A stretch of 38,482 bases of DNA from Desulfosoma sp. Lineage in GTDB: Bacteria > Desulfobacterota > Syntrophobacteria > Syntrophobacterales > DSM-9756. This document shows, one piece after another, positions 3,223 to 7,469 of the stretch (positions are counted from its first letter, which is position 1; every line of letters starts with the position of its first letter). The notes beneath the pieces were generated by a model that was not told the origin of the DNA, made no database searches, and worked only from the letters and a program-made list of their open reading frames with translations. Both the position numbers and the translations under genes were made by a program. The stretch spans positions 1-38,482 of the forward strand of contig JBBFKW010000021.1 in assembly GCA_037481835.1 (NCBI GenBank), read 5' to 3'.

Positions 3223-3305
3223 AGCATCACAGAGCGGCATTGCAGCTGCGCCTGCAGGAGGCCGGCTGCGATGGCGACATCGCATCGCACCAAGAGGTCA
3301 ATCCC

Positions 3306-4127
3306 ATGGGCATGAGCGTTTCTTTATACAGAAAACTGCAAAACGTGCCGCCGGACCTTCGTGAAGTGCTGCTCAGCCTCTTCGAAGAGGTCGAGCGCAA
3401 TCGTGAGGAATCGGTGTCCAAAAAAGAGTTTGTCGAGCTCAAGGAGGTGGTCCGTGAACTGGCGGATGCCCAGCTGAAGACCGACAAGCAACTAGGCGTT
3501 CTCACGGCCAAGGTGGAGGAGCTTGCGGAGGCGCAAAAACGCACCGAGACCCGTTTGAACGCTCTGGCGAGCAAAGTGGAGGAGCTGGCCGAAGCGCAAA
3601 AGCGGACGGAAGCTCGGCTGGAGGAGCTGGCCGAAGCCCAAAAGCGGACGGAAGCTCGGCTGGAGGAGCTGGCCGAAGCCCAGACACGGACGGAAAAAGA
3701 GGTGGCCAGCTTGGCCCGGGGTCTTAAAGTAACGCGGGAACAACTGGGCGGGCTTTCCAAAAGCATGGCCTATGCCCTGGAAAACGAAGCCTATCGGAAA
3801 CTTCCGGCCTACCTGGCTTCGGCGCACGGCATCCGGGTGAAGGAGCGGATCGTGCGGGCCGATGTTGCGGACGAGGAGATCAATTTCTTCGCAAGGGCGG
3901 AAAAAGACGGCAAGCCCGTGATTCTCGTCGGGGAATCGGTCCTCCGGTTGGATGATGCGTCCAAGTTGAAGAGCCTGATGGACAAAGTGGAGAAGGTGGG
4001 TTCGGTCTACGGGGACGAATTGGTGCCCATTTTGGTGACGCACTTTGCCAAACCCAAAGTGTTGGACAAGGCCCGACAGGCTGGCATTTGTGTCGTCCAA
4101 AGTTTCGAATGGGACGAGAGCCCCTGA
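3306..4127 (+). CDS. Coiled-coil repeat protein with C-terminal PD-(D/E)XK-like domain (DUF3782-like architecture)
   Basis: Repeats of [14 protein letters not shown] followed by [14 protein letters not shown] and EEIN...ILVGES. Confidence 0.7.
3514..3694 (+). repeat. Intragenic tandem repeat: one 63-bp unit then 42-bp units
   Basis: TGGAGGAGCT starts at 3514, 3577, 3619 and 3661; the 42-bp copies are near-identical. Confidence 0.9.
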
Positions 4128-4148
4128 AGCCGGGCGCGGGGAGAACCC

Positions 4149-6113
4149 CTACGACGAAGTGGGGTCCGCACGGCGGACGTTCCAGAAGGTTTTGGCGTAC
4201 TCTTCCGAAAGGATGCGGCGGTCGCCCACACGCACGGTCATGCCGATGGAATCCAGATAATCCAGGATGCTGAGGCCCCGAGTGCGGCCGAATCCAAAAA
4301 GATCCGCACAGTCGCCGACGGTGACGGCACCGTCTCGAAGAATCTTTGTTCGGACCTTCACCTTGATCTCTTCCAAAGCCTCTCGAGTCATGTAGCGGCC
4401 GTCCCGCAGGCGCACCAAGGTTTTTTGGGCCGTCAGATAGTCGACGAGTTTTTGGACCTCCGGCCGCGGATAGCGTTCGCCGTGATCGTCGCAGAAAGTG
4501 CCGACGGCGAAGGTCCGCCATCCCAACTTCTTTGCGTAATCCAGAATCCTTTGGACGATTTCCTGCTGGCGCCGCGGCAGGACCGTGACCCGATCGGGCA
4601 GCCGATACCCGCCCGAATCCCGGGTGACTGTGCCGCGGCCTTCCAAATCCGCCAAGACGTGCTCGACGACGGCGTCATCTATGGGAGCATCGACCCGGTG
4701 TCGGATTTCCTGCGGGGTCACGGTGGTTTTCAGGGGATTTTCGGCGAGGATTTCCGAAAGAGCCCTGAAAACTTCGCGGCTCAGGTGGCTGTAGGAATCC
4801 TTGGGCATGATGCGTTGGCCGCCGATCTGAACATAGCGTCCCTCTCGGCAGGCGCGTTCCACATGATCGGCGACGGTCCGAGACGGAAAGCCGGTCGCCC
4901 GCGTAATTTCCGTGAGGCTCACGGCGCGATGGCCCGTCCGTTCAAACAATTTGTTCACGGCGTTTGGGACGTCTTCGTGCATGAGGCAGCGCAGAAAAGG
5001 GATGACCTTGGATGCCTTGCGCTCACGATATTTTTGCCCGGAAACCTCCAAGACGATCCCTCCACCCAGCAGGGCTTCCAGATCCACGGAGCACATGACG
5101 AAGGGGTCCCGTGCCAAAGCCGCCGTGGCTCTTTCCAGGCGGAATTGCACCAGGCCGGACTCCCCAGGGGCCAAGGTTTCGCGCTCCATGAGAACGACAA
5201 CGGCGTTATGGCATCCCGTTCCCACGTGGATTTTTACCCGGGTCCTGTTCACGAGAGGGCGGGGGGCATATCGGGACATCTGCAGCCGAGCGTTGAGGTA
5301 GAAGGCCGGGGCAGCGTATTCGGGCGTTACGAGCGCCATGCCGTGATCCACCGCCTCTGTGGGCACCCCCCTCAGGTTGATCCCCGCGCGCATGCCCGCC
5401 TCGATGCGCGGGACCCGTTCGTGGTGCACTTCCAAAAATCGGGCCGTGACCACTTGGCGGGCCGGAAGCAGCTCCACGGGATCGCCTTCAGCAAGGGTTC
5501 CCGACAGGACCGTGCCGGAAACCACGGTGCCGAATCCCGCCGCCTGGATCACCCGATCGATCCATAGACGAAATACAGGGTGCACAGTCTCCGTGCGGAT
5601 CGAATTCGCGAGGCGTTGGATCTCACGGAGCACGGCTTTAAGCCCGCGGCCGTCTACGGCGGAAAAAGGAAGGATCGGACACCCCTCCAGGAACGTGTCG
5701 CGCACGAGGTCCCGAACTTCCATGGCCGCCAGTTCCAGGGTTTCTTCGTCCACCAAATCCGCTTTGCTCAGCACGACGAGACCGGTTGAGGCGCCCATGA
5801 ACCTCAGGATTTCCAGGTGATCCAGGGTTTGAGGCATGACGCCGTCGTCGGCGGCGACCACAAGGAGCGCCGCCCGCACGGTGCTCAAACCCCGGATGGT
5901 GTTTTTTCGGAAATCCTTGTGTCCCGGAACATCCATCAAGGCGATGCGGCGGCCGTCAGGGAGGACGAGAGGGGCCACGCCGGGTTCGATGGTCAAGCCG
6001 CGGCGTTTTTCTTCTTTCAATCGGTCCGTGTCCCAGCCGGTGAGGGCCTTTACCAGAGAGGTTTTGCCGTGATCCACATGGCCTGCGATGCCGATAAGGC
6101 ACGGGGGATTCAT
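4149..6113 (-). CDS. selB: Selenocysteine-specific elongation factor SelB, divergent (SelB*-like)
   Basis: IAGHVDHGKT, DVPGH, VVAADDGVMPQT, IDRV...GFGTVVSGT, and C-terminal winged helix LDYLDSIGMTVRVGDRR; 654 aa. Confidence 0.93.
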   Translation of the reverse strand: MNPPCLIGIAGHVDHGKTSLVKALTGWDTDRLKEEKRRGLTIEPGVAPLVLPDGRRIALMDVPGHKDFRKNTIRGLSTVRAALLVVAADDGVMPQTLDHLEILRFMGASTGLVVLSKADLVDEETLELAAMEVRDLVRDTFLEGCPILPFSAVDGRGLKAVLREIQRLANSIRTETVHPVFRLWIDRVIQAAGFGTVVSGTVLSGTLAEGDPVELLPARQVVTARFLEVHHERVPRIEAGMRAGINLRGVPTEAVDHGMALVTPEYAAPAFYLNARLQMSRYAPRPLVNRTRVKIHVGTGCHNAVVVLMERETLAPGESGLVQFRLERATAALARDPFVMCSVDLEALLGGGIVLEVSGQKYRERKASKVIPFLRCLMHEDVPNAVNKLFERTGHRAVSLTEITRATGFPSRTVADHVERACREGRYVQIGGQRIMPKDSYSHLSREVFRALSEILAENPLKTTVTPQEIRHRVDAPIDDAVVEHVLADLEGRGTVTRDSGGYRLPDRVTVLPRRQQEIVQRILDYAKKLGWRTFAVGTFCDDHGERYPRPEVQKLVDYLTAQKTLVRLRDGRYMTREALEEIKVKVRTKILRDGAVTVGDCADLFGFGRTRGLSILDYLDSIGMTVRVGDRRILSEEYAKTFWNVRRADPTSS

Positions 6114-6131
6114 GGGCCTCCTTTCTGCGAC

Positions 6132-6686
6132 TCAGCACACGGTCTTTGGGACCAACGTTTCACGAAACAGGCGGATCGCTTCCGGAACCGCTTTGCGGAC
6201 GAGCACAGGGCGTTCCATCCCTGCGCCCAAGCGGTCCTCTTCGTACCCGGGATGAGCCGGGAGCGGGGCCGGCGTTTCGGCGAGCGCCGCGGTGTCGTAA
6301 ATGGTCCGGTCGCAGGCCGCCTCGAGGAGCGGCTTTTTCGCAGCGGCGGGTCGGTCCACCCAACCCAATCGGGCCATGATTTCGAACCGGGCTTGGTCGA
6401 TGAGGTAAAAGTAGCCGTTGAGAAGTCGGCACAGGGTGTCCAGATCCTGAGACTCGAAGGCTTCTCCGTGGCCCAATCCCTGACAGACCATAATGAAATC
6501 ATAAAGAGCCGTTTGGGCCTCGTCGCTTTCGGAGGCAAAGGCGAGAAGCACCGAGCCGGGAAGATCCTTCCAGGTGGTCGATGCGTTCCACAGGCCTTGT
6601 CCAGGAAAGAGCCAGCGGCACAGGCGAAAAGCCCGGTCGGCCAGTTTGCGGTATTTGTACCCTTCGAGGGAGACCACATCGCCCAT
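6132..6686 (-). CDS. Hypothetical protein in the selC*-mvhD-selB* operon
   Basis: Protein-like ORF (MGDVVSLEGYK...PKTVC*) filling the mvhD-selB gap; start uncertain (6686 or 6728). Confidence 0.7.
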   Translation of the reverse strand: MGDVVSLEGYKYRKLADRAFRLCRWLFPGQGLWNASTTWKDLPGSVLLAFASESDEAQTALYDFIMVCQGLGHGEAFESQDLDTLCRLLNGYFYLIDQARFEIMARLGWVDRPAAAKKPLLEAACDRTIYDTAALAETPAPLPAHPGYEEDRLGAGMERPVLVRKAVPEAIRLFRETLVPKTVC

Positions 6687-6756
6687 CAGTCGTTGCTTTT
6701 CATGAAATTGACGGCGTGCTCTGCCCATTGGAGGCCACCAATTGATGAGAAAAAAA

Positions 6757-7218
6757 TCATTGGGATGCCGCTTTCTTTTGAAGAAGGGGCTCGGGTTCCC
6801 ACAAAGACGGATACAGGGGCCCCAGAGCTCTGATGCGATCGGTGATATCCCGGCAGCATTGAGCGAACTGCGGTCCCATGGAGGCGGAGTTGTAAACCAT
6901 TCCCACGCGTTCCGGTTCCACACCGAGCGCCTCCAGAAGCTTCTGCACTCGGGCGACCCGCTTGGCGGCTTTGAGGTTCCCGGAAATATAATGGCATTCG
7001 CCGGAAAGACAGCCGGAGACGTAAACGGCGTCGGCTCCTTGTTCCAGCGGCTTTAAGAGATGCACGACATCGACGCGTCCCGTGCAGGGCACGCGAACGA
7101 TGTAAACGTTCGGCGGATAGGACAAGCGCATGGCGCCGGCGAGATCCGCCGCCGTGTAGGAACACCATTGGCAGCAGTACAGAAGGATTTTGGGCTCGAA
7201 CCGTTGGGCTGTGGCCAT
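6757..7218 (-). CDS. mvhD: Methyl-viologen-reducing hydrogenase delta subunit / FlpD-like [2Fe-2S] protein
   Basis: FEPKILLYCCQWCSYTAADLAG, RVPCTGRVD, GADAVYVSGC..GECHY..GN; GGAG upstream of ATG 7218. Confidence 0.93.
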   Translation of the reverse strand: MATAQRFEPKILLYCCQWCSYTAADLAGAMRLSYPPNVYIVRVPCTGRVDVVHLLKPLEQGADAVYVSGCLSGECHYISGNLKAAKRVARVQKLLEALGVEPERVGMVYNSASMGPQFAQCCRDITDRIRALGPLYPSLWEPEPLLQKKAASQ

Positions 7219-7234
7219 GAGGAGTGCTCCCGAC

Positions 7235-7326
7235 TGGAGGGGGCAAGGGGAATCGAACCTCCTCCCGGTTGATGAGACCGGGCCGACGGGTTTGCAGCCC
7301 GCGGGGCGCCCAGCGCCGTTGCCCCC
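7235..7326 (-). tRNA. Atypical tRNA-Cys(GCA) with tRNA-Sec-like 8/4 fold (selC*-type)
   Basis: Acceptor GGGGGCAA/TTGCCCCC (8 bp), D-arm GGCGC-TGG-GCGCC, anticodon arm GCGGG-CT GCA AA-CCCGT, variable arm CCCGGT-N7-ACCGGG, T-arm GG(A)GG-TTCGATT-CCCC, discriminator T and encoded CCA. Confidence 0.9.
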
Positions 7327-7374
7327 GAAAACCGAAGTCCGCATCTGCGTGCCCGAATCCGATATGGCGGTTGG

Positions 7375-7404
7375 CTCTTACGACCACATCGGCCGATGTG
7401 TCAA
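7375..7404 (-). promoter_or_regulatory. Putative sigma70 promoter of the selC* operon with palindromic operator
   Basis: Minus strand TTGACA-N18-TAAGAG; perfect 16-bp palindrome CACATCGGCCGATGTG at 7385-7400. Confidence 0.5.
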
Positions 7405-7469
7405 ATAGGTAATTTCGATAATCCAGGAGAGCCTCCTTCGGTTTTCGGCCGTCCGGGTTTTTTCGATTC

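Follow-up and report, generated by a model that had tools for sequence, protein, structure and literature searches.

The stretch of DNA analyzed here, referred to below as the window, is the 38,482-nucleotide (nt) contig JBBFKW010000021.1 of assembly GCA_037481835.1 from Desulfosoma sp. Between positions 7326 and 4149 its minus strand carries, in this order, selC*, mvhD, orfX and selB*, which stand for a cysteine (Cys) tRNA with the shape of a selenocysteine (Sec) tRNA, a protein of the FlpD/MvhD family, an open reading frame (ORF) without a family match and a second SelB elongation factor. The locus was pointed out in an earlier note made from the sequence alone, and the observation is confirmed: its coordinates for the four-gene region are all correct, the ORF and the SelB gene lie on the same strand as the tRNA and mvhD, and the CCA end of the tRNA is placed 16 nt ahead of the mvhD start codon (ATG at 7218). 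The following two intergenic gaps are 28 nt (mvhD-orfX) and 18 nt (orfX-selB*). On either side the neighboring genes run in the opposite direction: one, on the plus strand from 7538, encodes an ATP-binding cassette (ABC) ATPase, and the other is an ORF rich in repeats with its end at 4127. The four genes therefore form a bounded unit, with a G+C content of 61% compared with 60% across the window. Judged by its sequence, this locus adds a further case to the selC*/selB* (tRNAReC) system already in the literature, and the idea of the note, a paralogous factor that inserts Cys at marked codons of redox enzymes, is the published hypothesis.

The selC* gene (7235..7326, minus strand) is the sole tRNA gene of the window. 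It is assigned by ARAGORN as a 92-nt tRNA-Cys with the anticodon GCA, and is nearly identical to published tRNAs, differing at few positions from the Desulfomonile tiedjei and Desulfacinum infernum entries in the supplementary table of PMC5389517. The Rfam tRNA-Sec model RF01852 matches it at 53.1 bits (E 5.5e-9), above the gathering score of 47, and the fold is indeed like that of tRNA-Sec, with 8 bp in the acceptor stem, 4 bp and a bulged A in the T stem (8/4 fold), and a long variable arm. The 3′ end reads ...CCCCC-T-CCA, which means that the discriminator base is U73 and that CCA is encoded; together, U73 and the GCA anticodon give the molecule a cysteine identity. The consensus fold of 10 selC* homologues contains two compensatory pairs in its acceptor stem of 8 bp and one in the variable arm, while the T stem, GG(A)GG/CCCC, was read by eye from the alignment, RNAalifold having given another register for that arm. 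Two selC*-type tRNAs upstream of selB* in related genomes (L030:1140-1231 and L031:1243-1334) have a UCA anticodon; their acceptor stems contain A2:U71 and G8:C, and the discriminator is A rather than U73, features that are unlike the published A1:U72/U73 type.

The selB* gene (4149..6113, minus strand), preceded by a strong ribosome-binding site, AAAGGAGG, encodes 654 residues. The protein is assigned by the NCBIfam selB model TIGR00475, whose cut-off of 242.25 it passes narrowly with 277.8 bits, and by its membership in the SelB* clade described below. It contains an intact GTPase, domains 1–3, a spacer and four winged helices, and aligns along its full length with E. coli SelB (5lzb_z). The AlphaFold model, with a predicted local distance difference test (pLDDT) score of 88.9, shows the full SelB build, and its best fold matches are 5lzb_z from E. 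coli and 4zu9 from Aquifex aeolicus, over 633–638 columns.

The genome, which is 99% complete and consists of 38 contigs, encodes a complete ordinary set of Sec genes alongside selC*. An ordinary selB is present on contig C8 and scores 411 bits, compared with 277.5 for the window SelB in the same profile search; tRNA-Sec(UCA) is found on C2, selA (627 bits) on C1, and selD, which carries one in-frame TGA, on C9. The remark in the note that the window has no selA or selD holds, since a Pfam scan finds neither among its 27 other ORFs and both lie on other contigs. With the ordinary set encoded elsewhere, the window SelB is a second copy; the two SelBs of the genome share 34% identity, and the paralogous factor that the note supposed is therefore real. 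The genome also has an ordinary tRNA-Cys(GCA) of 75 nt on contig C10 and one ordinary cysteinyl-tRNA synthetase (CysRS). In addition, a 777-residue fusion is encoded on C1 (G000:C1 ~175078-177411; L103:562-2895), in which a cysteine-synthase-like (PALP) N-terminal part is joined to a full-length CysRS-like part; the latter scores below the cysS cut-off (237 bits), and the usual HIGH motif is not evident in it.

The relationship of the two copies was followed in a FastTree phylogeny of 168 SelB sequences, made up of both SelBs of the genome, 19 translated loci and, from clusters at 50% identity, the best representatives with at least 560 residues, shorter ones being dropped. The window SelB falls in a clade of 52 of the 168 tips with a support of 1.0, and the midpoint root lies on the stem of this clade. 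All four signature residues are present in 45 of the 52 tips. The copy is thus neither the sole selB of its genome nor a member of the canonical group, as the note's own refuting condition would have required, and this outcome favors the note.

The residues that set the clade apart emerge from a comparison of 51 SelB* proteins with nine ordinary SelBs of the order (numbering of the window protein). Position 46 is F in all nine ordinary SelBs and V or I in 50 of the 51 SelB* proteins (V46 in the window). The A at position 74 is replaced by R and the Q at 228 by E, both in 51/51; S, N or G at 231 gives way to H (48/51), E or D at 233 to R or K (47/51), and A at 244 to G (50/51). The residue following the catalytic His, E in ordinary SelBs, is non-acidic in SelB*. 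In the last winged helix the ordinary SRKYTIP becomes GRT(R/V)(G/A)(I/V)P, with SRK changed to GR(T/S) across the clade and GRT in the window. Other residues are retained: D186 and R242 in 51/51, H230 and R31 in 49/51. Where E. coli has R181, 35 of the 51 have Q, and the window protein has R. In the A. aeolicus protein Phe45 stacks on the pocket arginine, Gln227 is at the site of A76, and His229 contacts the amino group (PMC4605307); by alignment these residues correspond to positions 46, 228 and 230 of the window protein, so that the clade-wide changes lie at and beside known residues of the aminoacyl pocket. In a wider set of representatives, positions 46, 74, 228 and 244 together with GR(T/S) discriminate SelB*, with F or Y predominating at 46 in ordinary SelBs.

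The deviations from the SelB consensus quoted in the note (TIEPGVA, GHKDFRKNTIRG, SKAD and FGRTRGLSILDYLD) are all present, and its description of a last winged helix that is kept with changes applies to the whole clade. One of the deviations loses its weight, however, as N71 (KNT for KHM) is not special, N being frequent in ordinary SelBs of other groups. The pattern as a whole suggests a pocket that was retuned rather than rebuilt, which fits, but does not prove, a thiol or thiolate ligand. Nine SelB representatives outside the clade (P0147, P0159, P0162, P0163, P0166, P0176, P0181, P0187 and P0194) have mixed signatures, sharing F46 and Q228 with ordinary SelBs but R74, G244 and a last helix of the form G.GR(R/T) with SelB*.

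The gene between the tRNA and orfX, mvhD (6757..7218, minus strand; 153 residues), is a clear member of the MvhD/FlpD family: it matches Pfam FlpD PF02662 at 163.6 bits (E 2.5e-48) over all 123 profile positions (1-123), and its Cys columns are invariant in 17 sequences. Its motif is CCQWC, with TGT where a paralogue has TGA. This paralogue, the closest in the genome (G000:C5:148735-149151, 60% identity), carries this TGA in frame at the motif's third Cys, and the MvhD of the operon is thereby the Cys twin of a selenoprotein. The Sec-type gene (L041:7682-8185) reads CCMF-TGA, and a hairpin follows this codon; the gene is a solitary one, outside any hdr/mvh operon, beside a PAS histidine kinase, unidentified ORFs and an archaemetzincin-like domain. 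A third MvhD paralogue, on contig 13, has a TGA at a different Cys. A similar Sec/non-Sec pair is seen among the FdhA-type genes, two of which contain one in-frame TGA (C16:12814-14817 and C5:54296-55045), whereas a high-scoring copy at C9:92864-94876 is free of any stop.

The product of orfX (6132..6728, minus strand) is 198 residues long from the ATG at 6728, but in its homologues the start is at a position matching the ATG at 6686, which gives 184 residues. It matches no Pfam or NCBIfam family. Only eight word-sharing homologues were found, and the family is restricted to Thermodesulfobacteriota, the Atlas matches being unnamed clusters of this phylum. The AlphaFold model is all-helical (pLDDT 88.3) and has no structural match, with a best E of 0.57 in a Foldseek search against the PDB and a best Z of 3.6 in a wide VIA-align search. 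A pattern scan of one genome per species detects 60 orfX loci. An MvhD gene is directly upstream of orfX in 23 of them, and only six of these 23 have selC* upstream and selB* downstream. In seven orfX loci without selC*/selB* the gene after orfX was annotated: it encodes an FdhA-like molybdopterin protein in two, an HdrD-like CCG protein in one and an HdrA-like flavoprotein in one, and is unrelated or on the opposite strand in the other three, two of which have no mvhD. The many mvhD-orfX loci without selC* or selB* indicate that the two genes are an older redox pair, which was later bracketed by the tRNA and the factor in some lineages.

The distribution of the unit was surveyed in 41 genomes of the same order, the window's genome included. 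SelB*-type matches (39–100% identity, at least 453 bits) occur in 12 of them and form a group apart from the ordinary SelB matches at 27–35% identity (30–35% if full-length), and all 12 genomes have an ordinary SelB as well. In 10 of the 11 other loci selB* is preceded, within 1.5 kb, by a selC*-type tRNA, whose anticodon is GCA in eight and UCA in two. The synteny that the note had suggested looking for is found, as the complete order selC*-mvhD-orfX-selB* is conserved in seven of the 11; of the remaining four loci, two contain an MvhD-like gene but lack orfX, a third has mvhD on the opposite strand, and the fourth has neither gene. A metagenome scan with the SelB* alignment relied on patterns that are generic GTPase motifs, and most of its 80 loci are other GTPases. 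About six SelB*-type matches are present among the 13 metagenome loci examined (L110–L122). All three of the metagenome SelB* loci with upstream sequence have a selC*-type tRNA (one GCA, two UCA), and neither mvhD nor orfX is found at these three.

About 48 nt upstream of the window tRNA, a promoter-like box (7375..7404, minus strand) was read from the sequence, with TTGACA at 7404-7399, an 18-nt spacer and TAAGAG at 7380-7375. An extended -35 element (CCTATTTGACA.ATCG) is common to the upstream regions of the related loci, and the box probably acts as a promoter. A sigma-70 promoter and terminator scan at the locus reported no promoter by its criteria and nothing above shuffled sequences; the consensus scanner passed over the box because the -10 element matches at only three of six positions. 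At the other end of the unit, the plus-strand ORF at 3240-4127, convergent with selB*, encodes 295 residues with several tandem copies of a coiled-coil repeat, for which a Pfam scan returned no family.

In related loci some 190 nt, absent from the window's genus, come after the promoter box. Such leaders are present in Desulfacinum, in several Syntrophobacteraceae genome bins and on three metagenome contigs, for example at L060:3134-3275, L048:3068-3209, L049:2888-3029, L112:2742-2883, L116:92-233, L031:831-972 and, on the minus strand, L031:447-588. The leader starts with a GGAG ribosome-binding site and an eight-codon ORF, M-x-x-x-(F/L)-G-F-T-UGA; a hairpin, CUACC/GGUAG, follows 16–19 nt past the UGA and has an in-frame UAG in its 3′ arm. 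Further on, a segment is complementary to the ORF's 3′ half, and a terminator-like hairpin comes last. Among 23 distinct matches to the leader pattern, an ATG is placed exactly eight codons before the UGA in 20, a GTG in one, and an ATG further upstream in one. A match in L046, which has neither a start codon nor the hairpin, is probably due to chance. The proposed pairings hold in 86% of cells, compared with 34–61% when the partners are slid, and in five pairs both partners change, a number that seven of 500 shuffles also reach; since the sequences resemble each other, this support by covariation is modest.

The leader precedes selC*-selB* units with either anticodon (GCA and UCA), and also mvhD-orfX operons without selC*, which then end in FdhA-like, HdrA-like or HdrD-like genes. 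In one genome two copies of the leader drive mvhD and selC*-selB* in opposite directions, and in four genomes that carry the four-gene unit the leader occurs once per genome, at this unit. Near the window locus, a search allowing up to two mismatches found no leader, nor does the regular expression match anywhere in the genome. In comparisons of 13 loci with Rfam, tRNA-Sec alone reached its gathering score, and matches at E ≤10 in two loci are at chance level. Among the papers listed by a literature search, none describes a leader or attenuator with a Sec codon.

It may be hypothesized that the leader senses Sec decoding and switches the genes behind it. If its UGA is read as Sec whenever Sec-tRNA and SelB are available, the leader would gauge the capacity for Sec insertion and set the expression of the Cys back-up genes accordingly; both the sensing and the direction of the switch are inferred. 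It is conceivable, if on balance doubtful, that the selC*-mvhD-orfX-selB* unit descends from an operon with such a ribosome-read selenium sensor and that a Desulfosoma-like lineage lost the leader. Were this so, the window lineage would express the unit without such control. The leader, if confirmed, would be a more interesting object than the window locus.

With moderate confidence, the window locus is understood here as a system of the published selC*/selB* type, in which a Cys-tRNA of tRNA-Sec shape and a specialized second SelB form part of a selenium-independent back-up set. CysRS would charge the selC* tRNA with Cys, and the 8-bp acceptor stem would cause elongation factor Tu (EF-Tu) to reject it. 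SelB*-GTP would then carry the Cys-tRNA to ribosomes paused at a UGA with a hairpin of the Sec insertion sequence (SECIS) type, and Cys would be inserted where Sec normally goes. In the window organism the unit would be driven directly by the sigma-70-like promoter, with no leader between. As its MvhD represents the Cys form of a selenoprotein that the genome encodes at another site, the whole unit looks like a back-up set of this kind. The note had described the locus in similar terms, as a possible dedicated Cys-delivery or selenium back-up module, and its interpretation is partly supported, the paralogy and the apparent adaptation of the factor being the sides that find support.

Several points weigh against this understanding of the locus. 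The adaptation of the factor to Cys finds its argument in the paralogy and in the clade-wide changes of pocket and helix, but the window protein retains D186, R187 and R242, which bind the selenolate, so that Sec could still be accommodated in its pocket. The changes in the last winged helix point to an RNA target other than an ordinary SECIS. The UGA leader is absent from the window, so that a selenium response is not evident in this organism. The published decoding experiments, as PMC13582414 sums them up, used a clostridial tRNA and ordinary SelB in E. coli rather than SelB*. For the window organism itself, Cys charging, SelB* binding and UGA decoding are proposals drawn from sequence, and co-transcription of the four genes is suggested by the short gaps and the lack of a predicted terminator between them. 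All eight sequencing runs that cover positions 4100-7450 or part of them are classed as 'DNA?', none as RNA.

Among the other explanations, the one that survives best, unlikely as it is, holds that SelB* and its tRNA do not decode at all. SelB* might be a regulator that binds a SECIS-like RNA or sequesters a factor, or the tRNA might serve mainly as a processing site for RNase P. The SelB of E. coli takes part in a SECIS-like control of selAB, and both the altered RNA-binding helix of SelB* and the position of the tRNA at the 5′ end of the operon would agree with such a role. However, the 51 clade members conserve the GTPase motifs, catalytic His and tRNA-binding domains, as expected for a working elongation factor, and the tRNA is a perfect cloverleaf with compensatory changes.

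Slightly less probable still is that the tRNA is serylated and converted to Sec-tRNA by SelA, with SelB* inserting Sec at UGU or UGC codons marked by a hairpin. Sec-tRNA species with GCA anticodons are reportedly present in nature, as Mukai is said to have described in 2016, and the tRNA-Sec shape with its long variable arm, as well as the retention of D186, R187, H230 and R242 of the Sec pocket in the window protein, would be in line with this proposal. On the other hand, U73 and GCA are the main CysRS identity elements, the second basic residue of the pocket is lost in most SelB* proteins (Q in 35 of the 51), and the nearly identical D. tiedjei tRNA was the subject of an in vitro assay of cysteinylation by the CysRS of that organism (PMC5389517).

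It is very improbable that selC* and SelB* decode a codon of their own operon, namely the TGT of MvhD Cys19 (window 7162-7164), by means of a local hairpin. This codon is TGT in nine of 10 distinct selC*-linked genes, whereas TGC is found in nine of 13 unlinked ones, and the two Cys codons before it vary freely. No conserved hairpin follows it, however: RNAalifold gives a 4-bp stem of -4.87 kcal/mol for nine linked genes, weaker than the -9.33 kcal/mol obtained for 10 unlinked genes. The linked loci come from few lineages, and the TGT bias may be due to shared ancestry; moreover, a special factor would bring no obvious benefit at an ordinary Cys codon. Finally, that the window gene is just an ordinary selB beside an oddly annotated tRNA, for which one could cite only that it passes the NCBIfam selB cut-off, is refuted by the better selB, the tRNA-Sec(UCA), selA and selD elsewhere in the genome and by the separate clade.

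The selC*/selB* system belongs to the small number of natural examples in which a stop codon may be re-read by a second elongation factor and tRNA. The window locus adds no new principle to it. Its physical tie to the Cys twin of a selenoprotein supports the role as a back-up set, for which MvhD on contig 5, FdhA on contig 16 and SelD are the candidate targets. Positions 46, 74, 228, 231, 233 and 244 and the GRT helix make a shortlist for the discrimination between Cys and Sec and for the choice of the RNA target. Cultured carriers exist in Desulfosoma caldarium and Desulfacinum hydrothermale, and the locus types with and without the leader provide a natural comparison.

The published selC* tRNA-Cys, as described in the accessible text of PMC5389517 (Mukai et al. 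2017), resembles tRNA-Sec in its 8/4 fold, has a bulged A51a, U73 and either GCA or UCA as its anticodon, and is always found beside a full selABCD set. In Syntrophobacterales and Desulfobacterales a second selB, named selB*, is located downstream of selC*, and the tRNA was proposed to mimic tRNA-Sec and to be recognized by SelB*. A review from 2020 gives the same account (PMC7609411). In a paper from 2026, as far as its accessible part goes, the tRNA is named tRNAReC, Vargas-Rodriguez 2018 is cited for the decoding of UGA as Cys with both anticodon types, and the division of labor between the two systems is said to be still unclear (PMC13582414).

The window locus shares with the D. tiedjei and Desulfacinum systems the 8/4 tRNA with U73, GCA, G1:C72 and a T stem that has a bulged A, a second selB located downstream in the same orientation, the lack of an adjoining cysS* and a complete selABCD elsewhere. 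Unlike the published description, it has mvhD and orfX between the tRNA and the factor. What was available of the main text of PMC5389517 is silent on MvhD, HdrA, hydrogenase and operon, which its supplementary figures may show, and Desulfosoma has no match in the supplementary table. The link to a Cys-form mvhD, the older mvhD-orfX pair and the UGA leader of the relatives are what the present analysis adds to the published system.

The window factor also has much in common with the ordinary SelBs of E. coli (5lzb) and A. aeolicus (4zu9), namely the seven-domain build, the GTPase motifs and the D, H and R residues of the pocket. It lacks their pocket-stacking Phe and SRK motif, in place of which it has V46 and GRT, and differs further by the clade-wide R74, E228, H231, R/K233 and G244.

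Selenium-free Cys isoenzymes that serve under selenium scarcity are known from Methanococcus. Another case is fdhF-Cys of Treponema primitia, which, according to the accessible text of PMC3892789, encodes a selenium-free isoenzyme that is turned on when selenium is scarce. The Desulfosoma genome resembles these systems in that the window MvhD is the Cys twin of a Sec-MvhD and that both Sec and non-Sec forms of FdhA are encoded. In contrast to isoenzymes of the T. primitia type, the isoenzyme gene of the window is in physical linkage with genes for a tRNA and an elongation factor.

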